From Campylobacterota bacterium (lineage in GTDB: Bacteria; Campylobacterota; Campylobacteria; Campylobacterales; Sulfurimonadaceae): 28,359 nucleotides of DNA. Every line of letters begins with the position of its first letter. Positions within the stretch are counted from its first letter, which is position 1. The DNA is taken from positions 1 to 28,359 of the forward strand of contig JAYEKO010000091.1 of NCBI GenBank assembly GCA_034661055.1. The letters run 5' to 3'. Of this stretch, positions 1,000 through 27,778 are shown one piece after another. Position numbers and translations under genes: made by a program. The notes under the pieces are model-generated. The model saw only the letters and a list, made by a program, of their open reading frames with translations. It was not told the DNA's origin and ran no database searches.

Positions 1000-2019
1000 C
1001 TAAATAATCCAACCGCCGCCAAGCAGTTTGTCGCCATCATAAAAGACCGCAGCCTGACCTGCTGCGACACCATATGCTGGCTCTTTTAAATCAATGCGTG
1101 CATTATTGTCCTGTATCTCTACATGACAGGGTATCGCTTTACTTCTGTAGCGAAGTTTTACGCTCGTATCAAAACTTTTTCTATTGTCAAACATATTAAG
1201 ATGTTCAATCTCAAGACTTCTGGTATTAAGCTCTTCACGCTTTCCTACAACAATCTGATTTGTCTTTGGTAAAATCTCTAAAACAAAATGTGGGTCATGA
1301 GCACCGTGAACCGTAAAGCCTTTACGCTTGCCTATGGTGTAGTGCATATAACCTTTATGTGTTCCTACTACCTCACCATTACAGTTAAGTACTTCACCCT
1401 CAGCATCGACATTAACATAATCTTTTAGTACATCTGTATAGGTGGTCTCAACAAAACAGATCTCACTTGATTCAGCTTGCTCGGCAAAGCTTTCTAAGCC
1501 ATCAATAGAAGCAGCCAAAGCCTTAATATCTGTTTTTTTTCTCGTTCCAAGTGGAAAAATAAGACGGGGAATAATGGCTCTATTAATATAAAAAAGAAAG
1601 TAACTCTGATCTTTAGTATCATCTTCGGCTTGAATAAGGTACTTACCATCATGACGCAGATAGTGTCCTGTTGCTAAGAAGTCTGCTCCAATTTCATCAG
1701 CATACTCAATCATAGCTCCAAACTTTAAATTACGATTGCACAGAGCACAGGGGTTAGGTGTTCGTCCCTCTTTATAGGTCTGTACAAATGGATTAAATAC
1801 ATTTTCATCAAAACGCTCTTGCAGATCAAGTACATGTAATTTTACATGTAAATTATCGGCTGCTTTTTGAGCGCGAGCTAAATGAATCTCATGGTAGCCA
1901 GGGCTATTATGAAGTTTCATGTAGAGCCCCTCCACTTCATACCCTTCATCTATTAAAAGCTTTGCAGATACAGTAGAGTCAACCCCACCACTCATACCTA
2001 CTAAAACCTTCTTACTCAT
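1000..2019 (-). CDS. mnmA: tRNA 2-thiouridine(34) synthase MnmA
   Basis: SGGVDS PP-loop, TPNPCALCN, ATGHY, KDQSYFL, ESSEICF, YTIGKRKG, GQAAVFY; start ATG at 2019 (MSKKVL) preferred, alternative 2025. Confidence 0.96.
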   Translation of the reverse strand: MSKKVLVGMSGGVDSTVSAKLLIDEGYEVEGLYMKLHNSPGYHEIHLARAQKAADNLHVKLHVLDLQERFDENVFNPFVQTYKEGRTPNPCALCNRNLKFGAMIEYADEIGADFLATGHYLRHDGKYLIQAEDDTKDQSYFLFYINRAIIPRLIFPLGTRKKTDIKALAASIDGLESFAEQAESSEICFVETTYTDVLKDYVNVDAEGEVLNCNGEVVGTHKGYMHYTIGKRKGFTVHGAHDPHFVLEILPKTNQIVVGKREELNTRSLEIEHLNMFDNRKSFDTSVKLRYRSKAIPCHVEIQDNNARIDLKEPAYGVAAGQAAVFYDGDKLLGGGWII

Positions 2020-2788
2020 CCCCATACTCTTTTGAGTTGTAAAAATCTTTTAGTGTTTTGAAATAGGATGTTGACTCCAACCCCTCTTCTTTTAGATTGT
2101 CTATCTGACATGCAAGAGATTTTTCAATCTCATCGGCAACAAAATCGAGATCATCTATTAGTGTAATAATCTCCATATCATGCTCTTCAATCATGTCATG
2201 CTCTAAAAGTGAGGTTTTCATAAAGTCAATTAATGGTGTATAGTAATCCACACCAATAACAAAAAGTCTGACCCCTTTTATTTTTTTTGTCTGAATCAGT
2301 GTTAAGGCCTCAAACAGCTCATCTAATGTTCCATAACCACCGGGGAAAACTACATATGACATGGAGTATTTAACCAGCATCACCTTGCGTGAAAAGAAGT
2401 AATCAAAGGTACACTCTTTAGTTGTAAAAGGGTTCGGTGACTGTTCGTGCGGTAGATCAATATTTAAACCAATTGATTCAACACAGTGTTTATTAAAGGC
2501 ACCTCTATTGGCAGCTTCCATAATACCCGGCCCGCCACCTGTAAGAATGTTAAAACCTTTAGCGGCCAATTTATCGGCAAGCTTCATAGCATTATTGTAA
2601 TGTACAGAATCTTTGTGTGCCCGTGCTCCGCCGAGTATAGTCACTGATGGTCCTAGGTCTCCTAACTCTTCAAAGCCTTGAACAAAATCTGCAATTACTT
2701 TAAAAACACCCCAGATATCTGAAGATTTAATATCTTTAACATAACGTTTAGCTAACTCTTTTTGTAAGTTTTTTCTACGTTCCATCAC
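2012..2788 (-). CDS. LOG-family nucleotide phosphoribohydrolase (TIGR00730 Rossmann-fold, 'lysine decarboxylase-like')
   Basis: TGGGPGIMEAAN, GLNIDLPHEQ, YFFSRK, PGGYGTLDE signature; start GTG 2788 or ATG 2785. Confidence 0.9.
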   Translation of the reverse strand: MMERRKNLQKELAKRYVKDIKSSDIWGVFKVIADFVQGFEELGDLGPSVTILGGARAHKDSVHYNNAMKLADKLAAKGFNILTGGGPGIMEAANRGAFNKHCVESIGLNIDLPHEQSPNPFTTKECTFDYFFSRKVMLVKYSMSYVVFPGGYGTLDELFEALTLIQTKKIKGVRLFVIGVDYYTPLIDFMKTSLLEHDMIEEHDMEIITLIDDLDFVADEIEKSLACQIDNLKEEGLESTSYFKTLKDFYNSKEYGDE

Positions 2789-2797
2789 TGCTATCTT

Positions 2798-3670
2798 TTA
2801 CGGTTTTAACTGGTTCAAACGATCTCTCTTGGTGCCAATTGTTGTAATTTGTATGCCAAAGTTTCCATCAACAATGACTACTTCGCCTTGGGCAATAACT
2901 CGATCGTCAACCAATATGTCAAGAGGGTCATTTGCAAGTTGATTAAGTTCAATAACAGAACCAATATCCATACTAAGTACATCTTTTAAAAGCATCTTTT
3001 TCTGTCCAATTCTAACACGAACCGGCAGTTTTACATCCATGATGAGTGATATGTTTTTCATCTCGCTCTCATCAAGATTATGTTGTTCTTGTTGAGTTGA
3101 CTCTATGGGTGCATTAGCTGATGGGCTTGACTCTTGCACAGGAGCACTCGAAGAGGAATCCTCAAAAGCACTTATAAAGGCATCATCTGCAACCAACATC
3201 ATTAATGAGTTGATACTTCCAAGTTCAAAGTTAAAAACATACATCTTACTAAAGCCGTCAACATCGACCTCTGAAGATTCATCAATATATTCAATATCTT
3301 CTACATTAAAGCCAACAACAGGAAGCTCTTTTTGCGCTGAAAGAGATGTTGAGATTGCTCCCACTATGTTGGAGGCAATCTCTTTAGTTGCATCAAGATC
3401 TTCCTCATCCATCGCCTCTTTAGCATCACCTTCACCACCAAGCATCAGATCACCTAGTGCGGTAGCGAGGCTTGGCGGCATCACCACCACAAGCTTTGCA
3501 TCAACTGCTCCCGTTACTGTAATTTTAGTAAGAGATGTAGGAGGAATAATATTTGATACTATCGTAATATCTTCTTCATTTTTATAGGTAAAAGTAGGTG
3601 CTTGACCTGTTAACCCTTCAATAGTTGCTACTGTTTCACTTTGAAAAAGCTTTATGAAATCATCAATCAT
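2798..3670 (-). CDS. fliY: Flagellar motor switch protein FliY (CheC-like plus FliN/SpoA domain)
   Basis: C-terminal FliN-like domain (DVKLPVRVRIG, GEVVIVDGNFGIQI); follows fliM as in Campylobacter/Helicobacter. Confidence 0.93.
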   Translation of the reverse strand: MIDDFIKLFQSETVATIEGLTGQAPTFTYKNEEDITIVSNIIPPTSLTKITVTGAVDAKLVVVMPPSLATALGDLMLGGEGDAKEAMDEEDLDATKEIASNIVGAISTSLSAQKELPVVGFNVEDIEYIDESSEVDVDGFSKMYVFNFELGSINSLMMLVADDAFISAFEDSSSSAPVQESSPSANAPIESTQQEQHNLDESEMKNISLIMDVKLPVRVRIGQKKMLLKDVLSMDIGSVIELNQLANDPLDILVDDRVIAQGEVVIVDGNFGIQITTIGTKRDRLNQLKP

Positions 3671-4760
3671 CTATATCTTCCTCTTCGCTTATATCTTCTT
3701 CTATTATATTTTTTACACCTGAAATTGTCTCAAAACGTTCATCTTCAAAGCGTTTTAGTGCTCGTTTTACTGCATCTTTTTCTGTATCAATCACTTCTGT
3801 GATTTGAATTGATTTTCTAAAACGTCGAAGTCCAATTTCACCTCTGAAGCGATTTTTTCCATCAACTTTCATGGTTATAATGTCATCCCCTGCATTATTT
3901 AGCCGAACGACATCCCCTTGTGAAAGCTCTAAAATGTCACCCAAGGAGAGTTCAGCAGTTCCAAGGTCAGCTTCAATGGTCACTTCCGCACCACCAAGTA
4001 AGACTTTCAACTCCTGATTTCTACTCTTTTTAGAACTTGTCTCATTAAGCATAAGATCACGACTTGCCAACTTTGGAAGAACAGGCTCAAGTGCAATTAC
4101 AGGATAACATATATTCATCATTCCAGAGCTGTGCCCAATAATAATTTCCATAACAACCATAACGACAATCTCATTTTGTGCCACAATCTGAACAACATTT
4201 GGGCTAGACTCTTTTGATTCAACAGCAGGATAAATCTCGCTAGCAGGTTGCCAGGCTGCCCGCAGTGTATTCATCATGACACGCAAGATTGTCTCAAATA
4301 GACTTAACTCAATATCTGAAAACTCTCGTGTCGATTCAAAAGGTTCTCCTTTTCCACCAAGAAGACGATCTAGCATTGGAAAAGCGATGGATGGATTAAT
4401 CTCTAAAACACCGTTGCCCTCCAGAGGCTTCATTGAAAAGACATTAAAACTTGTTGGATTTGGAAGCGACATCAAAAATTCACCATAAGTCATCTGATCA
4501 ACAGAATGAAGTTGAATCTCAACAATTGATCGCATAATGGCAGATATCTGTGATGCAAGTGAACGTGCCATTTTATCGTGAATACCACGAAAGGCGCGTA
4601 GCTGCTCTTTTGAGACACGATTTGGTCGCTTAAAATCATAGAGCGTAATTTGTCGTTGTGGATAAAGCTGCTCTTCGTCTACTGCAAGGTTATCATCACC
4701 ATCATCATCAACAACGTCGAGTAGAGCATCAATCTCTTCTTGTGAAAGAATATCAGCCAT
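3663..4760 (-). CDS. fliM: Flagellar motor switch protein FliM
   Basis: MADILSQEEIDALL CheY-binding peptide, YDFKRP, LLGG motif. Confidence 0.97.
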   Translation of the reverse strand: MADILSQEEIDALLDVVDDDGDDNLAVDEEQLYPQRQITLYDFKRPNRVSKEQLRAFRGIHDKMARSLASQISAIMRSIVEIQLHSVDQMTYGEFLMSLPNPTSFNVFSMKPLEGNGVLEINPSIAFPMLDRLLGGKGEPFESTREFSDIELSLFETILRVMMNTLRAAWQPASEIYPAVESKESSPNVVQIVAQNEIVVMVVMEIIIGHSSGMMNICYPVIALEPVLPKLASRDLMLNETSSKKSRNQELKVLLGGAEVTIEADLGTAELSLGDILELSQGDVVRLNNAGDDIITMKVDGKNRFRGEIGLRRFRKSIQITEVIDTEKDAVKRALKRFEDERFETISGVKNIIEEDISEEEDIDD

Positions 4761-5451
4761 CGTCTCCTCCCACTGCAGTTTTTATTTTTCTAATCACAGA
4801 TTTATGAATCTGTGAAATACGTGATTCTGTGATTTGTAGAACTTCACTAATCTCTTTAAGTGTCAACTCCTCAAAATAGTAGAGTTGAATAATAAGTTGC
4901 TCTCGTTCACTGTAATTACTTAAAACAGATTTTATCACATCTACAAGCTCTTCACGCTCCACTTTCTCTAGTGCTGCACCGCCATCACCATTTTGAAGCT
5001 GATCATCTAAGGGCATCACCGTATAAATATCAGAAGCGATACGTGCGTCATGAATCTTCTCTACACTCTCTCCTATCATCTCTGAAAGCTGTTCATTGGT
5101 AGGTTCAATCTCATGTGTGATTAGGTACTCTTCAATCCTGTAATTAATAGCTTTAATGAGCTTCCTGTTAGCACGACTGACAATATCAAGAGAACGGAGG
5201 TAATCTAACATTGAACCATATACTCTAGTTTTTGCATAACCCCAAAATGAATCATTTTGAGTCTCATCATAACGACGTGAAAGTTTTACTAACTCTTCTG
5301 TTCCAATAGCTGAGAGGTCCATATAATCTACAGAACTTGGCAGTCGCTCTTTTAGGCGAAATGCCATTGCTCGTACCGCAGGAAGATAATCAATTGCTAA
5401 CTGATCTTCTTTGTGTTTAAGCTCTTGATTATAGGGATTTCTTTGTATCAT
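4753..5451 (-). CDS. fliA: RNA polymerase sigma-28 factor FliA
   Basis: Sigma region 2 (YAKTRVYGSMLDYLR) and region 4 (YYFEELTLKEISEVLQITESRISQIH). Confidence 0.96.
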   Translation of the reverse strand: MIQRNPYNQELKHKEDQLAIDYLPAVRAMAFRLKERLPSSVDYMDLSAIGTEELVKLSRRYDETQNDSFWGYAKTRVYGSMLDYLRSLDIVSRANRKLIKAINYRIEEYLITHEIEPTNEQLSEMIGESVEKIHDARIASDIYTVMPLDDQLQNGDGGAALEKVEREELVDVIKSVLSNYSEREQLIIQLYYFEELTLKEISEVLQITESRISQIHKSVIRKIKTAVGGDDG

Positions 5452-5795
5452 GCAGCTTCCTCAACATTAGCCTGAGTGTTGGCAGAAGCACTAATAAAAT
5501 TAACAGAACTACTCATATCATAAGGCTCATCAATGCTTAACTCACGCTTCTCAATCTCACGAATATAATAGTCTAAGTCTTTCTCATGACGCTCTTTTGA
5601 AAACATACCTTTTTTACCCAAAAACGTTCGATAATACAGAGCAACAAACAGGTGCGAAAAGAGGTAAAAAAAGATACTAATCAAAAAGGTATATGTCAAT
5701 ATATCTACAGCGCTTTGTGCTTGTAAAACTGCAATTACAAGTCCTAAAAAAAAGCCTTGAACCGTAAGAAAAGCGACGAAATTGTTACCTCTCAT
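5448..5795 (-). CDS. Conserved small membrane protein between flhG and fliA (positional equivalent of Cj0062c/HP1033)
   Basis: Two hydrophobic helices; occupies the syntenic slot in the Campylobacterota flhF-flhG-X-fliA operon; AAGG RBS. Confidence 0.8.
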   Translation of the reverse strand: MRGNNFVAFLTVQGFFLGLVIAVLQAQSAVDILTYTFLISIFFYLFSHLFVALYYRTFLGKKGMFSKERHEKDLDYYIREIEKRELSIDEPYDMSSSVNFISASANTQANVEEAA

Positions 5796-5811
5796 ATAAT
5801 AAACCTTACTA

Positions 5812-6687
5812 TTAAAAATGTTCCATAAGTCGCTTAAACAAGCCGCTTAATCCACTATCTTGCGACTCTACAAGCATATTACGTTCCATTTTTTGCACCA
5901 CTCTCTTTGCAATCATCTCAAGATCACGTGAAGGAGTAGCGTGAGGATGCTCTTTTACAAAAAGCGTTCTCTGCTTAACACTGTGGGACACTTTGGCATC
6001 TTGCGTTATTTTTCCTAGTAGTGTCAAGTTTAACTGCGCACCAATATTTACAAGTGCCACTTTTTTGATTTTAGCAAAAACTCCTTGAGCCTCTTTATCG
6101 TTACAGACCTGATTCATGACAACTTGAATATCATCACGTAGCTTTGCTGTTACTTTGATGGTTGCATAAGCATCTGTAATGGCTGCAGGGTCTGGAACCG
6201 TAACAACTACGACATCATCTGAAGCTTGCAAAAAGAGCTGTATATGCTCTCCTATACCTGCTCCAGTATCAATAATCAAAATATCTAAGTCATCCAGACT
6301 TGATGCATCTTGCATAAAACGTTCAAACATCTTAGCATCTGCATAATTTAAAATCTCTTGTCCACTCTCACCTGGAATAAGCACCAAGTTATCATTAATT
6401 GGAATTAAAATTTCTGAAACTGTAGCTTCACCTTTAAGTACATGCAAAATATTCTTTTTAATTTTTACGTTAAACATAACATCTAAATTTGCTAGCCCAA
6501 TATCTGCATCAAAAATACCAACTTTAAGTCCATTTTGAGAGAGAAGATAGGCAAGATTAGAGCTAATTGTACTTTTACCCACTCCACCTTTGCCACTAGT
6601 AACTGCTAAAAAACGTGTCTTTTTTGCCGTTTTTTGACTCTGCGATGAAACAAGCTCTTCTAGTTTTGATGCTTGATGGTTCATCAT
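5812..6687 (-). CDS. flhG: MinD-like flagellar number regulator FlhG
   Basis: N-terminal HQA motif, TSGKGGVGKS Walker A, DADIGLAN, DTGAG; directly after flhF. Confidence 0.95.
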   Translation of the reverse strand: MMNHQASKLEELVSSQSQKTAKKTRFLAVTSGKGGVGKSTISSNLAYLLSQNGLKVGIFDADIGLANLDVMFNVKIKKNILHVLKGEATVSEILIPINDNLVLIPGESGQEILNYADAKMFERFMQDASSLDDLDILIIDTGAGIGEHIQLFLQASDDVVVVTVPDPAAITDAYATIKVTAKLRDDIQVVMNQVCNDKEAQGVFAKIKKVALVNIGAQLNLTLLGKITQDAKVSHSVKQRTLFVKEHPHATPSRDLEMIAKRVVQKMERNMLVESQDSGLSGLFKRLMEHF

Positions 6688-7934: not shown

Positions 7935-8425
7935 TAACATCTTCCTAAAAAACTAAGTGGGATAATAACACTCTCTCTACTCTGCCAAGAGGGATGAGGA
8001 AGTGTTAATTCTTTACTCTGTATGACTCGTGAATCAAAGAAAATCATGTCAATATCAAGTGTACGCGGAGCATCAGCAAAACTGCGCTTACGCCCAAACT
8101 TTTTTTCTACATGTAAAATATAACGTAAAAATTCTTTTGCCTGCATTGACGTTGAAACCTCTAAAACCGAATTTAAAAAATCTTCCTGTTCTATAAATCC
8201 AAAAGGAGGATTTTTTAAAATCGGTGCCGTCTCTATTAGCGTTACTCGATTGTCTCTTTTTAAAAAATGAATAAGACGAATAAAGCGTCGTCTCACATCA
8301 CCAATGTTTCCACCAATTCCCAAAACAGCGCGATATCGATGCCGATTTATGACAGCAAATCGCGCAGGAAAACATCGATCACTAAAAAGAGTTAACTCTG
8401 AATTGATTCGATGCTTTATTGGCAT
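7934..8425 (-). CDS. folK: 2-amino-4-hydroxy-6-hydroxymethyldihydropteridine diphosphokinase
   Basis: GIGGNIG, FLNSV, PRTLDIDMI, LPHP motifs. Confidence 0.95.
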   Translation of the reverse strand: MPIKHRINSELTLFSDRCFPARFAVINRHRYRAVLGIGGNIGDVRRRFIRLIHFLKRDNRVTLIETAPILKNPPFGFIEQEDFLNSVLEVSTSMQAKEFLRYILHVEKKFGRKRSFADAPRTLDIDMIFFDSRVIQSKELTLPHPSWQSRESVIIPLSFLGRC

Positions 8426-8427
8426 AT

Positions 8428-8916
8428 TTACGCTTGAGGTGCCGCAGCTTGTTGCTGTGCTTGCATCTCTTTAGCTGCTTTAACCTCATTTAAAATCTGA
8501 GTCATACCAATCATTGCCAGGTGGTATCCAAAAGGACCAAACCCTACAATTGAAGAGGCACATACCGGTGCAATCATGTTCTCTTTTCTAAACTCTTCAC
8601 GACGGTGAATGTTACTGATATGAACTTCAATAGTCGGGATATTTACCGCTGCAATTGCATCACGAATAGCAATTGATGTGTGTGTGTATGCCGCAGGATT
8701 AATTACGATTCCATCTATTTCGCCATAACACTCTTGAATACGATCAACAATCTCACCCTCTAAGTTACTCTGAAAAAATTCAACTTCTAAACCATTTTGA
8801 GTTCCGAAATCTTTCATCTGTGCATGAATTTGCTCTAACTTCATTGGACCATAAATCTGTTGTTCTCGAATACCAAGCATATTTAAATTTGGACCTTGAA
8901 TCACTGCTATTTTCAT
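8428..8916 (-). CDS. aroQ: Type II 3-dehydroquinate dehydratase
   Basis: [32 protein letters not shown]. Confidence 0.97.
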
Positions 8917-8949
8917 TTGTTACCTTTAGCTTATTTTTTTAAAGTCTTT

Positions 8950-8955
8950 ATTATA
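8950..8955 (-). promoter_or_regulatory. Candidate sigma70 -10 box (TATAAT) for the aroQ-folK-flhF...mnmA operon
   Basis: Perfect TATAAT on the minus strand 33 nt upstream of the aroQ ATG in the 88-bp divergent intergenic region; AAAGG RBS downstream. Confidence 0.55.
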
Positions 8956-9004
8956 CAATGTAAAGCATAATCTATTTTAAATTTATAGAAAAATAGGCAT
9001 ATAT

Positions 9005-11100: not shown

Positions 11101-12081
11101 TTACCACTTCTTAACAATATGCAGATATTCTACAGTAGTGCGCGCGCTCTTCTTTTGACCAAAATATTTGTGTGCCATGGATTTACATCTGTAGGTTCCA
11201 TATTGTTTCATCAGGTTGGCAATAGTCTCACTACTTAAAATCCCATCACTGCTGTAACTCATAAAAACATATCTGAACTTTGCATTTTTAATGAGCTCTT
11301 CTAATGCATTTTTTATACCGTTTTTTTTACAGAAGTTTGAGCGATTGTACTCACGTCGTCCTGTTTTACCTTGGGGAGTAAACTCATCATAGAGCGCAAT
11401 GGTATTAAGAAGATGATAGTCTGCTCCATATTGCCGTACATTATAGGGAGGATCAACATAGAGAATGTCTCCATGTAGCATTACTATTAACTCTGAAGCA
11501 TCAGTATTATAGACTCTATTGCTCTGATTAGTGAGCTCATATTCAGAAGGTTCTAAAATAAGCTTTTTTTGTGCTAATGGTTTTAGATATTTTAAGTAAG
11601 AGCCGTAAACCGAAGCGGTATTGGCTACCTTATCAGCACTTGCAATAAGGGATGAGAGTAGATAAAAATAGCTGTCTTCATCAATTCTCTTGCAGCTATA
11701 ATAATGCTCTATACGCTCTCGCATAGCATCAATTTTTTTTGCATTTTGGGCACTAAAATATTCTCTCTCATTCTTAGTGTTTTTAGCGTAATGTCTAAAA
11801 ATAAACCCCTCTACACCATCAAGCGCATTGAGTTCATCAAAAAGATCTTGACACTCAATTTTTTTACAGTTCGCTATACAATGACGATTTAAGACATAAG
11901 AGAAATACTCTAAATCATTACTTATAACTGCTTTGACCTCTTTTTTAAACGCTCGTCCAACTGCTCCACTTCCAGCAAAAAGATCACAAAACACCTGCTC
12001 TTTTAAATTGTACCCTACCTCTTCATATACCGTCTCTTTTATAAAAGCAATGAGCTTTTTTTTAGAGCCGATGTAGTTCAT
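11101..12081 (-). CDS. Orphan N6-adenine DNA methyltransferase, D12 class, M.NlaIII/M.HpyI-like (CATG family)
   Basis: MNYIGSK start, DLFAGSG SAM motif, ADKVANTASVYG, GDILYVDPPYN catalytic motif, YHLLNTIALYD, GKTG, FMSYS; no endonuclease ORF adjacent; family assignment from recalled sequence similarity. Confidence 0.9.
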   Translation of the reverse strand: MNYIGSKKKLIAFIKETVYEEVGYNLKEQVFCDLFAGSGAVGRAFKKEVKAVISNDLEYFSYVLNRHCIANCKKIECQDLFDELNALDGVEGFIFRHYAKNTKNEREYFSAQNAKKIDAMRERIEHYYSCKRIDEDSYFYLLSSLIASADKVANTASVYGSYLKYLKPLAQKKLILEPSEYELTNQSNRVYNTDASELIVMLHGDILYVDPPYNVRQYGADYHLLNTIALYDEFTPQGKTGRREYNRSNFCKKNGIKNALEELIKNAKFRYVFMSYSSDGILSSETIANLMKQYGTYRCKSMAHKYFGQKKSARTTVEYLHIVKKW

Positions 12082-12085: not shown

Positions 12086-13273
12086 TTAAAGTTCTGTTAC
12101 AGAGATAACGGAGGCAGTAATGTCGTATGTATCATCCATTAGATGAACTGTATCATCTACATGTAAATTTGAAAGGGCAGTGACCTTTCCATCTCGTGAG
12201 AGCTGGGCAAATCCCTCTTTGCTCTTTAGCTTTGGATTATTAACTCTAAAAAGCTCCTCCAGGTGTCTGATATCACGCTCTTTTTTCTGAAAAACTATTT
12301 CAATGTTTTGTGAAAATCGCATTTGCAACTCTTTTATTTCCTGCTTTTTTTGTTTTATTTTATTCTCTATTGATAAATTTGTAAAAGAGCGTTTTAATGT
12401 GCTAATTTTCTCTTGTTGCACAGAAAGCTTCTGTTTAATAGCCTGACTCATGTGAGAAGCAGTAGCATCAAGAGTTTGTCTGGCTTCATTAATATCTGGC
12501 AGTATCATCTCCATAGCAGCAGATGGTGTCGGTGCACGCAAATCAGACACATAGTCACTAATTACCCAGTCAATCTCATGTCCTACTGCTGAGACAACAG
12601 GAGTTTTAGCCTCAAAAATAGCATTGGCAACGACCTCTTCATTAAAAGCCCATAAGTCTTCAATACTTCCTCCACCACGCCCAATAACTATGATATCATA
12701 ATGTTTAGCATCGGCATACCCTAGCGCATGAGCAATATTGCCAGCAGCACTTTTTCCTTGGACAAGTACATCAAAAACGGTAATTTTTACTAAAGGCCAC
12801 CTATTTGATGCTACTCTTTGCATGTCTTGCAGGGCAGCACCCGTTGCAGAAGTTATGAGGGCAATATGCTCTGGATACTCTGGCATCGGTTTTTTACATG
12901 TAGAATCAAAATATCCCTGAGTGTGAAGTTTTTGTTTTAACTGCTCATAGGCAAGTGCCAAAGCACCTTGACCTGAGGGTTCAATCATAAAACAGTTAAT
13001 CTGGTATTCTCCACGTGGCTTATACAGAGTAAGAGCACCATCAACCAGCACTTTTAATCCCTCTTCTAAACGAAAACGTAGCTTTGCAGCATTACCTTTA
13101 AACATAACTGCGCGAATAGTTGAACCGGAATCTTTAAGTGTAAAGTAGATGTGCCCACTATTATGGTACGTAATACGAGAGAGTTCGGCTTCGACGTAAA
13201 CACGCATAAAGGTACTTTCAAGCAAGGTTTTAACCTGCTCATTGAGTGCAGAGACACTTAGTGGTGTAGTCAT
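12086..13273 (-). CDS. xseA: Exodeoxyribonuclease VII large subunit
   Basis: SVSALN, SGHIYFTLKD, RGGGSIEDLWAFNEE, SAVGHEID, RAPTPSAA. Confidence 0.97.
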   Translation of the reverse strand: MTTPLSVSALNEQVKTLLESTFMRVYVEAELSRITYHNSGHIYFTLKDSGSTIRAVMFKGNAAKLRFRLEEGLKVLVDGALTLYKPRGEYQINCFMIEPSGQGALALAYEQLKQKLHTQGYFDSTCKKPMPEYPEHIALITSATGAALQDMQRVASNRWPLVKITVFDVLVQGKSAAGNIAHALGYADAKHYDIIVIGRGGGSIEDLWAFNEEVVANAIFEAKTPVVSAVGHEIDWVISDYVSDLRAPTPSAAMEMILPDINEARQTLDATASHMSQAIKQKLSVQQEKISTLKRSFTNLSIENKIKQKKQEIKELQMRFSQNIEIVFQKKERDIRHLEELFRVNNPKLKSKEGFAQLSRDGKVTALSNLHVDDTVHLMDDTYDITASVISVTEL

Positions 13274-13996: not shown

Positions 13997-14990
13997 TAAG
14001 CTGTTTTTCCTCTAACCATATTTTTAAATCATTTCCACTTGGTTCTACATGTAAATATTTAAACTCAATTTTCTCATTTGTAAACGGTATTGTACCACCA
14101 CTTGATGGTGCTATGAAACTTAAATAGTAATTTACTAAACCTTTAGTAGCACTAAACATTGATGGGCCACCCTCTATCATAATATTTTTGTACTCTTTAA
14201 GCATAGAAAAGTCACTTTCAATATGGACCTTTCGCTTAGGTACATTAAATAGAGGAATAGTTTTGTCAAATTCACTGCTGTTAGAGTAAATTAAAATATC
14301 TGGTGCCTTGCCATTAACAAGCCTGCTATCTAAGGTTGGTCGATCTTCTCTTACTGTATTGCCACCAACAACAAGGAGATCACATCGATCTCTTAAGGCA
14401 TGAACATCTGTTCTTGACTGTAGTGAGCTAACAGTTCCACCATCAACAGTGCCATCTAGTCGTTGTGCCCACTTAAAAAATATAAAATTGTTGTTCTGCC
14501 ATGCATTAAAGGGAGCTAAAAGTGCATCACACGCTTCTTGACAGACACCACTCTCTACATTTTTAAAGAAACTTTTACCACCACTAGCTATCTTATGAGT
14601 ATCTAATGAGCCGATAACAACACGTTTAAATGAAAGTTTTTGTAAAAGAGTTGCACAAGAGGGAGTTTTGCCAATATGGGTACACGGCTCTAATGTAGTG
14701 TAAATAGTACACTCAGAAAAACAGTTATTATGATTTACATGTAAATAGTCATGAATATCGTGAGAGGATTTAAAAGAGGTAATTTTCACATCACCTGTTA
14801 GTTTAGTGTATGCATCTCTAAGTGCTAAGACTTCAGCATGAGGCTCTCCGGCTTTTTGATGTGCAGCAATAGAGAGAATTTCACCATGAGAGCCTACAAC
14901 AACCGCACCTACAGCAGGATTAGGGTAAGTTAGACCCTGATATTTCCACGCTTCATCAATAGCAAGCTTCATGAAGAGTGTATCATTCAT
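13989..14990 (-). CDS. ribD: Bifunctional riboflavin deaminase/reductase RibD
   Basis: PNPAVG, HAE, TLEPC..C Zn motif, LDG, IEGG. Confidence 0.95.
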   Translation of the reverse strand: MNDTLFMKLAIDEAWKYQGLTYPNPAVGAVVVGSHGEILSIAAHQKAGEPHAEVLALRDAYTKLTGDVKITSFKSSHDIHDYLHVNHNNCFSECTIYTTLEPCTHIGKTPSCATLLQKLSFKRVVIGSLDTHKIASGGKSFFKNVESGVCQEACDALLAPFNAWQNNNFIFFKWAQRLDGTVDGGTVSSLQSRTDVHALRDRCDLLVVGGNTVREDRPTLDSRLVNGKAPDILIYSNSSEFDKTIPLFNVPKRKVHIESDFSMLKEYKNIMIEGGPSMFSATKGLVNYYLSFIAPSSGGTIPFTNEKIEFKYLHVEPSGNDLKIWLEEKQLNE

Positions 14991-14993: not shown

Positions 14994-15428
14994 TTACCAC
15001 TCAAAAAAGGTGTTGGCTTTACTTATCTCATTGAACTCAATGCTAGCATCTAACATTGAGATTGTATCTTCCACTATAATAGTGTTGCCCTCAACACTCA
15101 AAATTAGGCCACGAATCTTTAGTTGGTCAACTGTAGTGATTTTTACTTTTTCACCAATAGAGTGCTTAAAATGATTTAAAGTCTTAAGTTTACGCTCTAT
15201 TCCTGGGCTACTTACCTCTAAACGGTATTCACCTGAAACTGGTGGAGTGACATCTAAAAGAGGTGAAAGTAATTTTGTAGCTTCAACACACATATCCATG
15301 CTAACGCCATCTTGAGACATCACATTAACACGGTAGATTGTCTCATCGTTTTCACTAACAATAGAAGTATCATAGAGGGACAAGCCGATAGATTCAACCA
15401 TGCTTTTAACATCTTTTTCAAGACTCAT
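14994..15428 (-). CDS. rimP: Ribosome maturation factor RimP
   Basis: YRLEVSSPGIERKL; start moved to ATG 15428 (AAGGAG at 15435-15440). Confidence 0.95.
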   Translation of the reverse strand: MSLEKDVKSMVESIGLSLYDTSIVSENDETIYRVNVMSQDGVSMDMCVEATKLLSPLLDVTPPVSGEYRLEVSSPGIERKLKTLNHFKHSIGEKVKITTVDQLKIRGLILSVEGNTIIVEDTISMLDASIEFNEISKANTFFEW

Positions 15429-15798
15429 TATCATCTCCTTCATCTCCACGCTCTTTAGAGATCTGCTTAAATAAATCATCAATATGCTTTGCTTTTTGGA
15501 AGTGATCATCAAATACAAATTCCAAGGTTGGAGAACGGAACCAGCCTTGATCTTTCATACAGTAATCTTCAATAATAGGACGTGCTTTTCTGATTTGACG
15601 TAGAAATGTGTTTCGCTCTTCTTCCGTGTAATCATGCGGATCTAAATAGACCTTAGCATCACTTTTACCACGAGAACAGCGTACTTCAATAATATCTAAT
15701 TCGCGTAAGCGCGCATCATTAAGTCCCGAAAGTGCTTCTGGAATTAACTCTGCTAAAATAGCATCCGTACGCTTGATTTTAATCTGAGCAGGGGTCAC
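15418..15798 (-). CDS. rbfA: 30S ribosome-binding factor RbfA
   Basis: [13 protein letters not shown]; directly after infB; GTG start overlapping the infB stop. Confidence 0.93.
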
Positions 15799-19591: not shown

Positions 19592-19600
19592 TTACGCTCC

Positions 19601-20933: not shown

Positions 20934-20954
20934 TTACTACCCCTTTTTGATACC

Positions 20955-20976
20955 TCAAAAGTATTGTAACTTTTGA
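20955..20976. promoter_or_regulatory. 8-bp inverted repeat whose 6-bp spacer is a minus-strand -10-like hexamer (TACAAT), upstream of lpxC
   Basis: TCAAAAGT-attgta-ACTTTTGA; spacer reads TACAAT on the minus strand, 29 nt upstream of the lpxC ATG. Confidence 0.5.
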
Positions 20977-21002
20977 AAATACATGTAATTAGATGATTAT
21001 AT

Positions 21003-22373: not shown

Positions 22374-23311
22374 TTCAATTCCTTACACAATTTATTTATA
22401 ATTTTATTTTCTAAAGCACAAATAGTTCCATCTTCAACTACAAAACCAGATCTTTCCCTGTGTCCACCGCCATCAAAATCTTTTACAAACTCTACAAGAT
22501 TGACACTGCCATCACCTCGTAGTGAACCCTTAATACTACCATCACTTCTCTCACGCAAGAGCAAGGAGACTTTAACAGTAGCCAAACAGAGTGCTTCTTC
22601 TAAAGCAGTTTCTGAATCTTGAGCTGTTGCACCACTACTTTTTAACATCTCTAAATTTACATGTAAAACTGCCAATGCTCCACTACAGTGAAGTTCTAAA
22701 CGCTCAAACATCAAACCTTTTAAACGTAGTGATGCTAAAGAGTTTTTATTGTATAGCTCATCAGAAACATCTTGACTCTGTGCACCACAACGGAGCAAAT
22801 CTGCTGCCATTATAAAACTATTTGCATCTGTTTTAGAGTGTAAAAAGCAGTTAGAATCATCTAACAGTCCAGCATAAAGTGCTGTTGCCATTTTCGTGTT
22901 GATTTTAATATCACCCTCTTTAAACAGCTCATATATTATTTGTGTCGTACTAATAGCATCAGTATTGACAATATTAAGATTACCAAAGTTGCTATTACTT
23001 GAATGGTGGTCAATATTAATTAATTCGCACTCTACATGATGACCCAAACGACTGACGCTTCCACAATCAAAACAGAGTGCCAGATCTGCACTTTTTGGAA
23101 ACTGCTGACGTAAAGCACTAAACCAAGGTAACTGTGCTAACTTTTTATCAGGCTGTGATGTTGCACAAAACAGTGTCACCTTTTTTTGTAATCTTAAGAT
23201 ATAAGAGTAAAAAGCACTCGCGCTACCAAAAGAGTCCGCATCAGGATTTACATGTAAAATAAGAACAATATGTCGTGCAGTTTCAAGTTTTTTGGCTATT
23301 TGCTTTATCAT
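22370..23311 (-). CDS. DHH/DHHA1 phosphoesterase (NrnA-like oligoribonuclease/pAp phosphatase)
   Basis: HVNPDADS, FDCG, NIDHH, GLLDDS, SLR, GGGH. Confidence 0.92.
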   Translation of the reverse strand: MIKQIAKKLETARHIVLILHVNPDADSFGSASAFYSYILRLQKKVTLFCATSQPDKKLAQLPWFSALRQQFPKSADLALCFDCGSVSRLGHHVECELINIDHHSSNSNFGNLNIVNTDAISTTQIIYELFKEGDIKINTKMATALYAGLLDDSNCFLHSKTDANSFIMAADLLRCGAQSQDVSDELYNKNSLASLRLKGLMFERLELHCSGALAVLHVNLEMLKSSGATAQDSETALEEALCLATVKVSLLLRERSDGSIKGSLRGDGSVNLVEFVKDFDGGGHRERSGFVVEDGTICALENKIINKLCKELN

Positions 23312-23318
23312 TACGCGA

Positions 23319-23327
23319 ATTATAGCA
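23319..23327 (-). promoter_or_regulatory. Extended -10 promoter TGCTATAAT, probably leaderless
   Basis: Perfect TGnTATAAT, 7 nt before the DHH ATG (23311); no SD in between. Confidence 0.7.
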
Positions 23328-23354
23328 GAGCAATATTCACGTTAGATTAGTGAT

Positions 23355-24221
23355 TCAGTAATTTCGAGTTGTACGAGCCACATCACACTCTTCAAGTTTT
23401 TGACACGCTTCTAAGAGTAGGTCATCAACGCTTTCATTAACACTGTGTAGATAAGAAATAGCATAATCAATCTTGACAGGTCGCGTTCCCTCTACTTCCA
23501 TCTCTTGCGCTGATTTAACAATAAATCCGACTAGCTCCTTAACTAGTTCCATCTTTTTTTCCTGTACAACAACAGCAAAACCGTTACCTGTCAGTCGTCC
23601 TTCTATATTGTTGGTATCAAAGTACTTTTTAATAAGAGTAGCTAATTTATAAAGAACTTTATCTCCCGTAAAATTTCCGTAGAGTTCATTAATTGCAGAG
23701 AGTGTATTAAACTGAAGCAGAACAAGATGTAGTCGTTGACGCTTCTTAATAGAGAATGCTATTGCTTTTTCAGCTTCACGAAAAAACGTTCTTCTGTTGT
23801 AAAGCTTTGTCATTGGATCGTAGCTACTTAAACGTTGAATCTCTCTGCTATGTTGCAGATGTCTAATATGAATATGCACACGTGATGCGATTTCTAGTTG
23901 GTTAAATGGCTTAAGGACATAGTCACTTCCTCCACTTTGAAACATATCGGTTATACTGTTTTTATTGACAGTATTTAATATAAACAGTACTGGAATATCT
24001 TTTGTTACGATATTAGTTACAATAGCTTTACATAAATCAAAACCCTCCTCACCAAAGGACCCATCTATTAAGATTAGTGAGGGGAGCCGTTGTGCCACTG
24101 CTTCTTGAATATCACTTAGCTGAGAAAAGAAGTTCAAATCATAAGTTTGTAAAATATTTTTAAGTATTTTTCTGTCAAACTCATTACTACTTGCAATAAA
24201 TATATAGTGTTTTTGGGTCAA
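23355..24221 (-). CDS. Response regulator receiver plus degenerate GGDEF domain protein
   Basis: REC (LILID, IPVLF, DYVLKPF) linked via DPMTKLYNRR to a GGDEF-like domain with RLTGNGF in place of RxGGEEF; TTG start with AAGGAG. Confidence 0.85.
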   Translation of the reverse strand: MTQKHYIFIASSNEFDRKILKNILQTYDLNFFSQLSDIQEAVAQRLPSLILIDGSFGEEGFDLCKAIVTNIVTKDIPVLFILNTVNKNSITDMFQSGGSDYVLKPFNQLEIASRVHIHIRHLQHSREIQRLSSYDPMTKLYNRRTFFREAEKAIAFSIKKRQRLHLVLLQFNTLSAINELYGNFTGDKVLYKLATLIKKYFDTNNIEGRLTGNGFAVVVQEKKMELVKELVGFIVKSAQEMEVEGTRPVKIDYAISYLHSVNESVDDLLLEACQKLEECDVARTTRNY

Positions 24222-26662
24222 ATCGACTCTCCTTTTTGATAATTACTATGCAAATTTTCCTGTTTAGGAAGCGGCATCATCACTCCAGCATTTTTAAGTG
24301 CCTTGTAAACACCAATGGCAATATCACTCTGCGCAACAATTAAGTTCTCACTTAACCAAAAGTAGAGTTTAAATTCTAAATAGTAGTCACCAAAACCTTG
24401 AAATGCAGCTAGTGGTTCAGGGTCTTTTAGTACATTGGGGTGTGCTATTGCTATTGTTTTCATTATCTTAAGTACGTCATCAATATTGCTATCAAAGTCG
24501 ACTTTAAAAAGTAACACTTTTCGACGTCTATCATCTGAGAGTGTCCAGTTTGTTACTTTAGTAGCAATAAAATCTGCATTGGGAATAATCACTTCCGAAC
24601 CATCAAATGTCTTAATAGAACTTGAACGTGTTCCTATTCCAAGAACCGTTCCCATGGTGGAATCTATTTCAATAGTATCGCCTATTTGAATAGGTCGCTC
24701 AAATACCATAATAATACCAGAGACAAAGTTTGCAATAATATTTCTTAAACCAAAACCAATACCAACTCCCAAGGCTCCAAATACAAGGGTAAACTGCTCA
24801 GGTGTTATTCCAAGTGACGAGAGTGCAATAATAGCCCCCGTAATAACAATTACATAGTTTAATGTTGTCAAAATTGCAGTAGGAATTCCTCTAGGAAAGC
24901 TAAAGCGTGAAAAAACCTCTACCTCTAAAACCGTACGAACTGCTTTGGCTATAAACCACGTACCAACAACAATAACAATAAAATCTACAATAGACTGTAC
25001 CGATATTGTCGTTGTTGCTATCTCCCACGAAAAGGCTAAGACCTTCTCTTTAAATTCAACCATATGAGTATAGATGCCTAATACTTTTGTTACAATCAAA
25101 AACCACCAGAAAAACATTGTAAATTTCAATAAGAAACTGATGGTTCTTTCTACTTTATATGCGTATTGATCTAAAATATTGGAAGCAGTTGAAATGCGTC
25201 GTCGCAACATAATAATGACATAGCCTGTTAATATAATGGTAAGTACATAAAAAATTATTGAAGCGTGTATAGTTCGAAAAATCCCCTCAGTGATACGCTC
25301 AGCAAGCTGTACTCCACCATAAAAGTTTGCAGCAACAGAGATTAAAAGCAACATGGCAAACAGTGGTAGCAGGAATGAAACAAGTTTACGCATTACCTTT
25401 AATGGAATAAACTCCATCACTTTTGTACGAATCATCTGTACAATAAACAGAAAAAGACCAATACTTAACATTATGTTTAAAAGTCTATTGTCTAATGAAA
25501 AACCGATAGAATTTTTCTCTATCAAAGAGATAAAGTAGAGTAAAAAATAGATATAAAAATGTGTTATCACCTCTTTAGGAAGTACCGTTTGCAATACTCT
25601 TGCAATCGGTATTAATATTATAAGTACTTCTAATTCCCTTACCGCCTTAGGAGAGTCAGGATAGATAAAGACAACAGCAAGTTCAATTAAAATCATTGCT
25701 GTTGAGAATGGCCTTTTAATAAAATAATAGATCGGTTTACTGTAAGACTCTTCTCTAATAAAGAGTCTTCTTTTACGATACAAGAAGTTGACATAACCTA
25801 CAGAGGTACCAATAATAACTACTACTACGAGCAATAACCAGATATTTTCACTATGATTTTCATGATAAATTCGAAACTCTTGTAATTTTTCTAAAACAGT
25901 CTTAAGCACATCTTTTAAATACTTAACAGGAGCAAATGACTGGTGCAAAAGAAGATCAATGAAAGGCGGTCTGTTTTGATGAAAGACCTGGTTAGAGAGT
26001 TGTATCTCCATATTTTGAAGTTTCTCATTAGTCTGCTTAATCAGCAGCACTTTAGTCGTTAAAACGTTGGAATTTGTAAGGAGTAAATCATACCCTTTTT
26101 TAGCAGAAACACGTAGCTTTTCTATCTCAACAATAACCGAGGCTACATGATCTTGAATCACCTGAGGAGCCATTTCGCTATTAGCATTAATGTGAGTCTC
26201 ACCCCAAAGCACTGATGCCTTCTCTAGTACAGCACGATTACTATCATACACTTCAATACGAGATTTAAGAACCTTTTCCCACTCACGTAACTGTTTAAGA
26301 TAGATGCTCCATTCTGCCTGCATCTTCTGCAAATTTCGAATGCTCTCATATTGTAAATTATTGTAGAGAGGGTCTTCTAAAAGAGCCTCAATGGAGTCAA
26401 CATAGGCAGGAATAGACTCCCGCATCTCTAAAACATGCTTCTCTTCTGTAAGAAGCAAAGATATATCTTTTAATTCAAGCAGTGTCTTTACAGCCTCTTC
26501 AGGAACTGCACTTACAGCAATAAAAGGGTACTCTTTTTCTATCTGAACTTGCTCTTTTAACTCAGCTTGTTCACTCTGTTGAGCAAGCACAGTTTCACTA
26601 GCAGATAGATGCCCTAACAACAGATATAAAAATGACAGTGTGACTAAAAGATATTTCATCAT
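24218..26662 (-). CDS. Large MscS-family mechanosensitive channel (MscK/YbiO-like architecture)
   Basis: Signal peptide, helical periplasmic region, multiple TMs, MscS core (GALGVGIGFGL, NFVSG, ERPIQIGD, IIPN, NWT, DPEP). Confidence 0.92.
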   Translation of the reverse strand: MMKYLLVTLSFLYLLLGHLSASETVLAQQSEQAELKEQVQIEKEYPFIAVSAVPEEAVKTLLELKDISLLLTEEKHVLEMRESIPAYVDSIEALLEDPLYNNLQYESIRNLQKMQAEWSIYLKQLREWEKVLKSRIEVYDSNRAVLEKASVLWGETHINANSEMAPQVIQDHVASVIVEIEKLRVSAKKGYDLLLTNSNVLTTKVLLIKQTNEKLQNMEIQLSNQVFHQNRPPFIDLLLHQSFAPVKYLKDVLKTVLEKLQEFRIYHENHSENIWLLLVVVVIIGTSVGYVNFLYRKRRLFIREESYSKPIYYFIKRPFSTAMILIELAVVFIYPDSPKAVRELEVLIILIPIARVLQTVLPKEVITHFYIYFLLYFISLIEKNSIGFSLDNRLLNIMLSIGLFLFIVQMIRTKVMEFIPLKVMRKLVSFLLPLFAMLLLISVAANFYGGVQLAERITEGIFRTIHASIIFYVLTIILTGYVIIMLRRRISTASNILDQYAYKVERTISFLLKFTMFFWWFLIVTKVLGIYTHMVEFKEKVLAFSWEIATTTISVQSIVDFIVIVVGTWFIAKAVRTVLEVEVFSRFSFPRGIPTAILTTLNYVIVITGAIIALSSLGITPEQFTLVFGALGVGIGFGLRNIIANFVSGIIMVFERPIQIGDTIEIDSTMGTVLGIGTRSSSIKTFDGSEVIIPNADFIATKVTNWTLSDDRRRKVLLFKVDFDSNIDDVLKIMKTIAIAHPNVLKDPEPLAAFQGFGDYYLEFKLYFWLSENLIVAQSDIAIGVYKALKNAGVMMPLPKQENLHSNYQKGESI

Positions 26663-26668
26663 ACCTCT

Positions 26669-27778
26669 CTAAAGTGAATCTAACTCTTGGCTTAACTTCT
26701 GTGCCATAACTTCATAGTTACGCTCTAGCTCAAGCAACTTTTTCTGTCCAGTTTCTCCTACCTCAATTAATGAGGCCTCATCAGCTTCAATCAGCATCTT
26801 GAGTTTACTCTCTATCTCCTTAACATCAAAACTACTAAAATAGGCTTCTGTATCTTCCTCAAATATAGAGCGGTTCTTACTGTTGTCACTTAAAAGTGCT
26901 GGTACTGCACATGTGTAGTAGTCAACTACTTTAGCAGATAGAGCATTATTATACAGCTCTTTGTTTGGGAGTAAGGCTAAGCCTACATCACAGCGACAGA
27001 CCTGCTTTTTAATCTCTGTAAGTTCGTCAGCATAAAGTACTTCAACTTTATCTTTAATCCTTGGATAGACTTTAAGCAGTTCATTAATAGTCTCCGGATT
27101 ATACACTGAAAGAGTCAAGTGCCACGATTTGTCACTTAAATTATTAAACGCATCAAGAACTACCTCGAACTCACGTAAAATATCGAGCGTGCCCATGTAG
27201 ATAAAGCGACGAACGCCATCATTACGAACAGAGCGAACTGTGAGCTGTTTTGGATCAAGTGCTGTTAATAGTGGATATACTTTACATGTAATATTCGGGT
27301 AAAAAACACGTTGCATCTGTGTTGTAGTCGGTAGAAAAATATCTACCTTATTAATAAGTCTATCTTTTGTAAAATTACCAAACTTAACACGTAAGGTCTT
27401 AAAAAAACCGGCATTACTCAATTTAGCATGTTCATACGCTTCAGTTGATTTTGCAAATGAGGTGCGAAAACCAACTTTATAGCCATACTTATCTCGATTA
27501 TCTAGAACAGCCTTTAAGATATGTTGCGTATTTCTAACAAAGACAAAATGGTATTGACCAATCTCTATGCCCTTGCTTTGAAGATAGTTAATTATGTCTG
27601 TATTATAGTGTTCTGGTGCAATGAAGTCATCACCTTTAACTTGAAAACTGTGCTTATATTTTGTGAAATAGACAACGTTTACATGTAGATGCTCTTTAAG
27701 GTAGCCATGAAACAGTGCCCCAATGGTACCGTGTTCACTGTACTCTTCTTGGTCTGTAATATATAGTAATTTTTTCAT
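26669..27778 (-). CDS. Glycosyltransferase (GT-B fold, GT4-like)
   Basis: FIYMGTL..R, CDVGLALLP, SAKVVDY..CAVP C-terminal nucleotide-sugar domain pattern; AAGGAG RBS. Confidence 0.75.
   Translation of the reverse strand: MKKLLYITDQEEYSEHGTIGALFHGYLKEHLHVNVVYFTKYKHSFQVKGDDFIAPEHYNTDIINYLQSKGIEIGQYHFVFVRNTQHILKAVLDNRDKYGYKVGFRTSFAKSTEAYEHAKLSNAGFFKTLRVKFGNFTKDRLINKVDIFLPTTTQMQRVFYPNITCKVYPLLTALDPKQLTVRSVRNDGVRRFIYMGTLDILREFEVVLDAFNNLSDKSWHLTLSVYNPETINELLKVYPRIKDKVEVLYADELTEIKKQVCRCDVGLALLPNKELYNNALSAKVVDYYTCAVPALLSDNSKNRSIFEEDTEAYFSSFDVKEIESKLKMLIEADEASLIEVGETGQKKLLELERNYEVMAQKLSQELDSL

Follow-up and report, generated by a model that had tools for sequence, protein, structure and literature searches.

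The question raised by this locus is what a single eight-base palindrome, TACATGTA, is doing again and again in the genes of one bacterium. The locus is contig C91, 28,359 nucleotides long and called the window below at its full length, of the draft bin G000 (GCA_034661055.1; 1,908,352 bases in 92 contigs, completeness 83%, GC 36.2%), which comes from a Campylobacterota bacterium in the family Sulfurimonadaceae. An earlier note, made from the letters of the window, took the word for a highly iterated palindrome, similar to HIP1 of cyanobacteria or to an uptake signal, that shapes protein sequences and belongs to a genome-wide and possibly undescribed system. The function of HIP1 itself has been debated for thirty years.

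The twelve exact copies that the note had counted were all recovered where it had placed them. As it had claimed, they far exceed chance: 100 dinucleotide-preserving shuffles of the window gave a mean of 0.56 copies (sd 0.73, maximum 3), and none of the 100 reached 12. The GC content is 37.2%, rather than the 35% or so that the note had assumed. The hexamer ACATGT occurs 13 times in the window, 12 times within TACATGTA and once outside it (26909-26914, context CACATGTG), and ten of the 12 sites extend to YTACATGTAR, both as described. As to the reading frames, the note was right that nine copies encode Leu-His-Val (LHV; xTA-CAT-GTA), two lie in a Thr-Cys (TC) frame (xxT-ACA-TGT-A) and one is intergenic, but its label “glycosyltransferase” for one of the genes did not stand, since the open reading frame (ORF) at 26669-27778 matches no Pfam or NCBIfam family. 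Nine of the ten LHV tripeptides in the 30 ORFs of the window are indeed written with the word, the tenth being in FlhG with TTGCATGTA. Site and ORF coordinates also agree that no copy lies in infB, in the flagellar genes or in the gene for a REP-associated tyrosine transposase (RAYT; 346-879, plus strand; NF047646, 3.6e-27).

Over the whole genome TACATGTA has 899 copies (0.47 per kb) and is the commonest of all 8-mers, against expectations of 48.1, 48.0 and 31.8 under Markov orders 1, 2 and 3. The 10-mer TTACATGTAA is found 452 times against 5.6 expected, TTTACATGTAAA 246 times against 0.8, and the 14-mer ATTTACATGTAAAT 74 times against 0.05. Lower Markov orders and shuffles were used because the maximum-order expectation is uninformative here, the 7-mers themselves consisting of TACATGTA. 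ACATGT occurs 1103 times in the genome, with the flanking T and A on 899 of these. To our knowledge, very few groups have exact short words that lead the k-mer spectrum in this way, namely Neisseriaceae, Pasteurellaceae and cyanobacteria.

The preference for certain bases extends outward from the core, to A, T, T on its 5' side and A, A, T on its 3' side, and is equal or stronger at the 108 sites that are purely intergenic. The symmetric flanks are thus a property of the DNA word and not of codons. Beyond ±4 bases of the core the composition is at background, so the word is not part of a longer repeat. The unit is a 14-16-bp palindrome with the invariant 8-bp core TACATGTA, and its form in the genus is aATTTACATGTAAATt. 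This shape bears on the plainest explanation of the abundance, in which the word would be an ordinary by-product of a peptide motif, of codon usage, of base composition or of REP/MITE copies. The RAYT gene in the window would suit REP copies; however, such an element would be longer and mainly intergenic, whereas conservation here ends at ±4 bases and 741 of the 899 copies lie inside ORFs.

The coding sites speak to the remaining parts of the by-product explanation. They were assigned with our own simple and admittedly crude ORF set for G000 (1767 ORFs with a minimum length of 80 codons, which cover 91% of the sequence). Of the sites within ORFs, 505 are read in the frame of LHV, 189 in that of TC and 47 as TAC-ATG-TA; a further 158 sites fall outside the ORFs. 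A peptide motif could account for so many sites in one tripeptide frame, but all three frames are used, and the density outside ORFs (0.93 per kb) is twice that inside (0.43 per kb). Shuffling synonymous codons within genes, which keeps the proteins, leaves 127.2 ± 11.1 copies, and shuffling codon order leaves 32.2 ± 5.1 (31 in a repeat run), against 739 coding copies observed (30 shuffles of each kind). Fixed proteins, in other words, predict just 127 of the 739, and it follows from the three figures that the word acts on codon choice (about six-fold) as well as on amino-acid sequence (about four-fold). The four most over-represented tripeptides of the proteome are TCK (124 against 20 expected), LHV (412 against 80), FTC (62 against 13) and HVN (193 against 41). 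The exact DNA word, as xTACATGTA, encodes 391 of the 412 LHV tripeptides, and motif-free orthologues carry other residues. We therefore regard the by-product explanation as refuted. A loss of enrichment after correction for codons and composition had been named beforehand as the result that would tell against the note; the excess persists over Markov orders 1-3 and over both codon shuffles. The genome-wide iterated palindrome that had been surmised from one contig is thus real at the scale of the genome, beyond Markov, codon and amino-acid nulls alike.

The note had also proposed a check for conservation at orthologous sites, and the sites are indeed kept beyond background. The comparison covers one syntenic region of about 25 kb; three sister species have all the genes of the window in the same order, and from xseA to the DHH-family gene the order holds family-wide. 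The nine coding sites of G000 that lie in the aligned genes are identical at 8 of 9 positions in G004, 7 of 9 in G002 and 4 of 9 in G001 (with a fifth G001 site by residue-level comparison), against 6-20% identity for background 8-mers of the same genes. Sharing extends across genera to G009 at two sites, ribD residue 313 and mnmA residue 63. The twelve copies of TACATGTA in the window, with what stands at the orthologous positions, are as follows.

1831-1838: mnmA, LHV at residue 63; motif shared here by all 5 motif-rich genomes compared (G000, G004, G002, G001, G009).
1843-1850: mnmA, LHV at residue 59, 12 bp from the 1831 site; G000 only (1 of 5), the orthologues having LGV, LHI, LNV and VGV.
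8108-8115: folK, LHV at residue 104; 4 of 5 motif-rich genomes, G009 having TTCATACA (LHT).
12158-12165: xseA, LHV at residue 370; 4 of 5 motif-rich genomes; motif-free genomes have LKP, LKE, LKT, LEV, VSE, LKK, VKV and LNK.
12895-12902: xseA, Thr-Cys at residues 124-125; 4 of 5 motif-rich genomes (STC); motif-free genomes have QSR, PER, PEI, SER, PET, TQY and KEI.
14046-14053: ribD, LHV at residue 313; 6 of 6 motif-rich genomes, including G009 of another genus; motif-free genomes have VHT, LHT, MHS, LHS, RHL, LNV and LHN.
14736-14743: ribD, LHV at residue 83; 3 of 6 motif-rich genomes, G001 being one base off (TACATGTG); motif-free genomes have LIA, LRA, LVN, LLS, LLQ and LLK.
20980-20987: intergenic, in the spacer between the M23 peptidase gene and lpxC.
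22658-22665: DHH-family gene, LHV at residue 216; 3 of 6 motif-rich genomes, G001 being one base off (TGCATGTA).
23249-23256: DHH-family gene, LHV at residue 19; 2 of 6 motif-rich genomes, the rest having AHV or VHV with 1-2 bases different.
27283-27290: ORF 26669-27778, Thr-Cys frame.
27680-27687: ORF 26669-27778, LHV at residue 31, CTACATGTA.

The mnmA residue-59 site, being confined to G000 among the five genomes, is a recent gain. Eight motif-free genomes have other codons at the motif positions, and often other residues. In the genus of the window, STC stands in place of PER, QSR, SER or PET, LHV in place of LKP, LKE, LEV or VSE, and LHT or LHS has given way to LHV; gains specific to G009 have turned VRV, VEL, LSV/LRV and LSI into LHV. 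With this replacement of residues at orthologous positions, and with the excess of tripeptides in the proteome, the claim that the word shapes proteins is well borne out. The M23-lpxC spacer, of about 69 bp, has exactly one motif in five of five species of the genus, at a position in G000 that differs from that in the other four. A small point of annotation in the same region concerns the rimP and rbfA ORFs (14994-15518 and 15418-15798, both minus strand), which have about 100 bases in common as listed; rimP probably begins further downstream than its ORF.

Words that differ from TACATGTA by one substitution are depleted (648 observed, 951 expected under the codon-order null). All 24 such variants are near, at or below the Markov-2 expectation, the outer positions being lowest (0.17-0.42 of it), and the transition neighbours TATATGTA and TACGTGTA are among the most depleted. 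This depletion fits a conversion of near-matches to perfect matches by point substitution, which would account for much of the excess of some 850 copies.

What, then, is the word for? We think that there is a little less than an even chance that TACATGTA is a lineage-specific self-recognition tag tied to natural transformation, of the type of the DNA uptake sequences (DUS) of Neisseriaceae, the uptake signal sequences (USS) of Pasteurellaceae and HIP1. An exact word, equal strands, dialects, an imprint on the proteome and retention between species are features of DUS and of the HIPs, and it is because these features occur together, and because the HIP and uptake classes are now being linked with each other in published work, that a self-tag is favoured. 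Under this proposal, a sequence-specific protein would, in the course of natural transformation, recognise the word on DNA that is entering the cell or recombining, and the two-fold symmetry of the word makes it probable that this protein is a dimer. Recognition could take place at uptake, along the type IV pilus and ComEC route, or during later processing and recombination. Fragments bearing the word would be favoured, and alleles in which a point mutation has turned a near-match into a perfect match would spread by recombination, by a molecular drive that selection may help. The endpoint would be a word every 2 kb or so, despite the changes to codons and amino acids. Natural transformation as the process, the recogniser, and any role of CATG methylation are what we infer here.

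Like DUS and USS, the words described here are lineage-specific and exact, stand at about one per 1-2 kb and show no strand bias; they also share with them the dialects, the tripeptide imprint, the sites common to species and, apparently, the accumulation by point substitution. Strand equality is trivial for a palindrome such as TACATGTA, but the sister word discussed below meets it as well (411 against 425 copies). The differences are that DUS and USS are asymmetric, whereas TACATGTA is palindromic and one sister dialect asymmetric, that there is no pairing into terminators here, and that one-off variants are depleted and not enriched. A second likeness is to RAATTY and the methyltransferase CtsM of Campylobacter jejuni, in the same phylum, in which a short methylated palindrome lets the cell tell its own DNA at uptake; an orphan adenine methyltransferase could mark the core of the present word too. 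RAATTY, however, is a degenerate 6-mer that is not known to be hyperabundant, while here an exact, flanked 8-mer tops the k-mers and the methyltransferase is dispensable. According to the part of PMC10046745 available to us, C. jejuni takes up only DNA that is methylated at RAATTY (N6-adenine, by CtsM).

The likeness to HIP1 (GCGATCGC) and the alternate HIPs goes further into the structure of the word. Both are 8-bp palindromes built as N-[6-bp type II-like site]-N', both are hyperabundant at about one per 1-2 kb, in and outside genes and in several frames, and both are conserved at orthologous sites, with other words in some lineages and an orphan methyltransferase for the inner tetramer. The present word differs in belonging to Campylobacterota, in being AT-rich and in having extra symmetric flanks (14-16 bp), and one sister lineage uses an asymmetric word. 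The outer-position variants are the most depleted ones here, which is the opposite of the bias described in the accessible part of PMC4390886. HIP1 was found to raise transformation in a way that depends on methylation, as far as the accessible text of 10.1101/2024.09.10.611283 goes, and it is proposed as an uptake sequence in the available portion of PMC13756078.

The distribution of the word among relatives, a survey of which the note had recommended, is that of a lineage-restricted motif within Sulfurimonadaceae. Of a set of 41 relatives, only those in the genus of the window (213-468 copies), G007 (951), G009 (772) and G023 (158) have the 10-mer in abundance; the remaining genomes have at most 6 copies, and a reversed control word has 0-5. 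A wider survey of 301 family genomes in 23 genera, which counted this one 10-mer and so undercounts lineages with other flanks, found 33 genomes with at least 100 copies and nine more with 40-99, the control reaching at most 10. The 33 rich genomes are all six of the window's own genus, 4 of 4 in genus g3, 5 of 5 in g5, the single one in g19, 11 of 12 in g37 and 6 of 142 in g2. An InfB tree joins the own genus, G007 and G009 in a clade (SH-aLRT 97) and does not settle the position of G023; a single origin of the word is therefore possible. Two otherwise conserved G001 genes, infB on C179 (L193) and a secretin gene on C48, each have a single in-frame TAA stop, which is likely an assembly error. 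There are sub-dialects in the flanks as well, CTTACATGTAAG being preferred in G007, G009 and G041 and CTACATGTAG in G167, with TTTACATGTAAA as a further form. None of the named Campylobacterota loci related to the window (the best 57-59% identical) has TACATGTA at raised density. A scan of viral contigs for the 14-mer gave at least 120 loci, 95 of them single-copy, and among the matches listed only L236 looks host-like. In this 11-kb stretch of a predicted viral contig (GC 32%), three of three ACATGT hexamers are TACATGTA, and it may belong to a phage or prophage of a motif-rich host.

Other lineages of the family have words of their own. Words were discovered de novo in 50-200-kb samples of 14 motif-free relatives, a search that rarer, longer or gapped words could escape. 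The asymmetric CTCACGCA of G006 occurs 102 times in 200 kb against 4.7 expected, 48 times forward and 54 times reverse over ten stretches that all have positive GC skew. The whole genome of G006 contains 411 forward and 425 reverse copies of CTCACGCAR (836 together; control 7 + 10). Each of 24 other family genomes has at most 46, and 8 of 151 genomes in the genus of G006 have at least 500, with forward and reverse copies about equal in every one. A GC-rich palindrome, AGCGCGCT, reaches 1158 copies in G020 (GC 35.5%; control 2) and at most 74 elsewhere. In 100 kb of G019 a less pronounced dispersed word, GCGATAGA, was counted 40 times where 8.6 were expected. The leading words of G008 and G017, which were considered as dispersed tags, turned out to be local tandem repeats, and nine further motif-free samples yielded no comparable word. 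Among the genomes covered by both surveys, none is rich in both TACATGTA and CTCACGCAR. TACATGTA, CTCACGCAR, AGCGCGCT and the flank variants are lineage-specific alternative words, or dialects. Some separate observations were made on the same genomes: a C5 methyltransferase gene adjoins an unassigned 360-residue ORF in G020 (L367); G019 has clustered REP-like repeats with TCGCAATGACG, separate from GCGATAGA, and strongly avoids CATG (observed/expected 0.36) and GATC (0.14); and in a 200-kb sample of G014 the palindrome CGTCGACG is found 82 times over both strands against 21.6 expected.

The equal strands of the asymmetric word bear on a further explanation, in which TACATGTA would act like Chi on a recombination nuclease, AddAB for instance, or would in another way mark the cell's DNA as self and so protect it from degradation, with lineages changing specificity in the course of time. 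Chi is among the most over-represented octamers of its genomes, and Chi, KOPS and AIMS are, like TACATGTA, over-represented octamers, which DNA-processing machines read. These known sites are, however, asymmetric and co-oriented with replication; a palindrome cannot be skewed, and the asymmetric sister word is without skew both on stretches of one sign (48 against 54) and genome-wide. A Chi-like contribution of HIP1 is suggested in the available part of 10.1101/2024.09.10.611283, and the neighbourhood of the methyltransferase considered next (xseA, recO) would suit such a signal. We nevertheless consider it very unlikely.

The window itself contains a gene that may act on the core of the word.

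11101-12081, minus strand: orphan D12-class N6-adenine DNA methyltransferase, NlaIII-like (PF02086, 3.4e-48).

The enzyme is about 54% identical to proteins annotated as “Modification methylase NlaIII” (target CATG). It is thus a candidate modifier of the motif core, of CATG type going by the annotation of its relatives; a search of PDB sequences with it gave no match. An orphan enzyme of this kind is what one would look for under Elhai's model of HIP1, in which the word would be a methylation- or repair-driven iterated palindrome, a site-specific repair bias making and protecting perfect sites and the abundance being a by-product. Several features agree with this model. No nuclease lies beside the gene, which is directly downstream of xseA in its own genus and downstream of recO in G007 and G009, both genes of DNA repair or recombination; its homologues in the motif-free G028 and G024 adjoin an IceA-type or NucS-like nuclease. 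In a tree, seven methyltransferases of motif-rich genomes stand on long branches, apart from the canonical, IceA-linked ones. In all seven, that of the window included, a conserved basic loop that does not vary among canonical NlaIII-like enzymes, RFKADKTENRNHKA, is deleted or changed, while the catalytic motifs (FxGxG, DPPY) are kept; the loop change may reflect an altered flank preference. The depletion of one-off neighbours, chiefly at the outer positions and including TATATGTA and TACGTGTA, would also be expected of a repair bias. Close homologues were found in 12 of the 20 rich genomes, in 6 of the 9 intermediate ones and in 2 of the 21 poor ones, although such counts treat related genomes as independent and so overstate the support.

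It is in the wider comparison that the repair model runs into difficulty. The methyltransferase was considered as the determinant of the word when it was found in all rich genomes at least 90% complete of the first set, but it is absent from 8 of the 20 rich genomes of the wider set, which leaves an association only. The complete, single-contig rich genomes G084, G201 and G242 have no PF02086 match at all, nor has G262. The D12 methyltransferase is associated with the word and is not required for it; an enzyme unrelated to it could methylate CATG. HIP richness, by contrast, accompanies cognate methyltransferases in what is accessible of Elhai's account (PMC4390886). The other DNA methyltransferases of G000, one of the MmeI family and one of C5 type that neighbours a BglII-like nuclease, resemble ordinary restriction-modification parts, and a Vsr-type repair nuclease was sought and no homologue was found in five of five word-rich genomes searched. 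Depletion of CATG (observed/expected 0.36-0.95), which was considered as a clue, is family-wide and independent of the motif, hence uninformative. The sister lineage, moreover, has an asymmetric word at equal density. There is also the matter of scale, since known repair biases are about two-fold, very-short-patch (VSP) repair in E. coli shifting word frequencies by a factor of about two, and the excess here is 20-fold or more. All in all, the repair model seems to us unlikely, although it deserves to be kept in mind.

The spacing of the sites invites still another explanation. It is roughly random and slightly even (coefficient of variation 0.95; variance/mean 0.89 over 143 10-kb bins), with no empty bin among the 143 against 1.3 expected and a largest TACATGTA-free gap of 11.5 kb. 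Sites so spaced could serve an abundant nucleoid-structuring or chromosome-organising protein, a role put forward for HIP1 by Xu et al., with selection keeping one every few kilobases. A consensus of 16 bp with two-fold symmetry is what a dimeric DNA-binding protein usually occupies, sites persist from one species to another, and the M23-lpxC spacer keeps one despite its change of position. Both selection on HIP1 and a nucleoid role for it are argued in the accessible part of PMC5861425. Most family genomes sampled, however, are without such a word. Species of the same genus have different words or none, so that an essential architecture would have to be replaced or lost repeatedly. We consider a nucleoid function decidedly unlikely.

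Returning to the proposal of a self-recognition tag for natural transformation, genes of the uptake machinery are present, as they are throughout the family. ComEC was found in 41 of 41 genomes, DprA in 5 of 5, and a secretin in each of the 25 searched. Besides a type II secretion system, G000 encodes two type IV pilus clusters of the MSHA-like kind. The second of these (contig C52; L359, 1-14499) contains three pilin-like genes and the gene for an 884-residue Laminin_G protein; a ParE-type toxin gene is inserted between the latter and the genes for the pilins. Synteny of the cluster extends to the rich genomes G007, G009, G084, G201 and G242 and to the motif-free G008. For its 300-residue pilin, 17 of the 33 rich genomes and 1 of 47 others have a strong orthologue; of the 11 rich g37 genomes, 10 lack it. 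The genomes are related, so that these counts, too, suggest more independence than there is. As a source of the receptor, the cluster was set aside as not required, being present in G008 and its pilin missing from many rich genomes; judged by its distribution, it is a candidate, not a determinant.

It is worth stating plainly what weighs against a transformation tag. No uptake or transformation experiment is known for these organisms, and among the papers listed by a literature search on Sulfurimonas and natural transformation none is about transforming Sulfurimonas, judging by titles and abstracts. ComEC, DprA, the secretins and the first pilus cluster (cluster A) are universal in the family and do not separate motif-rich from motif-free genomes. 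Neither candidate correlate follows the word faithfully: the second-cluster pilin is in only 17 of 33 rich genomes and in the motif-free G008, and the D12 methyltransferase is missing from 8 of 20. The comEC frame of the CTCACGCAR-rich G006 has an in-frame TGA near residue 345 of 422. The classical DUS and USS words are asymmetric, in contrast to the palindromic TACATGTA, and one-off variants are enriched in Haemophilus, while they are depleted here. Intergenic sites, judged by the orientation of the spacers, give no sign of a link to terminators or promoters, their density being 1.16 per kb where the neighbouring genes converge, 1.04 where they are in tandem and 0.82 where they diverge. Lastly, an uptake tag should be rare in DNA of foreign origin, and no motif-free islands were seen in G000, although a binned draft may lack such islands. 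The comEC stop of G006 (C1, about 253000-257500; L405) is in a complete genome, and it may point to a pseudogene, to read-through or to an error of sequencing.

A broader proposal takes in all the dialects. Sulfurimonadaceae would have a rapidly switching system of hyperabundant octamer self-tags with at least three words, palindromic and asymmetric ones alternating within the family and even within a genus. This would be the first DUS/USS-like system in Campylobacterota and, besides, the first known alternation of HIP-type palindromes with asymmetric words of the USS type in one family. We put this forward tentatively, as something possible but rather doubtful. As to the suggestion that the system is undescribed, none of the papers listed by full-text searches of the literature outside subscription journals was found, by title or abstract, to describe the word, or uptake sequences for these bacteria.

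The finding adds a fourth, unrelated group to those with such words, and it has the makings of a natural experiment. The family, and in part even a single genus, includes genomes with an AT-rich palindromic word, an asymmetric word, a GC-rich palindromic word or no word, several of them complete. With this contrast, the specificity factor can be searched for by comparative genomics, and uptake, recombination and repair can be told apart as drivers. The word also has practical consequences, since it biases both proteins (LHV, TC) and k-mer-based binning in ecologically dominant sulfur oxidisers, and adding it to donor DNA might open these bacteria to genetics. If the proposal of switching self-tags is true, the HIPs of cyanobacteria and the uptake sequences of proteobacteria would be two faces of one phenomenon.

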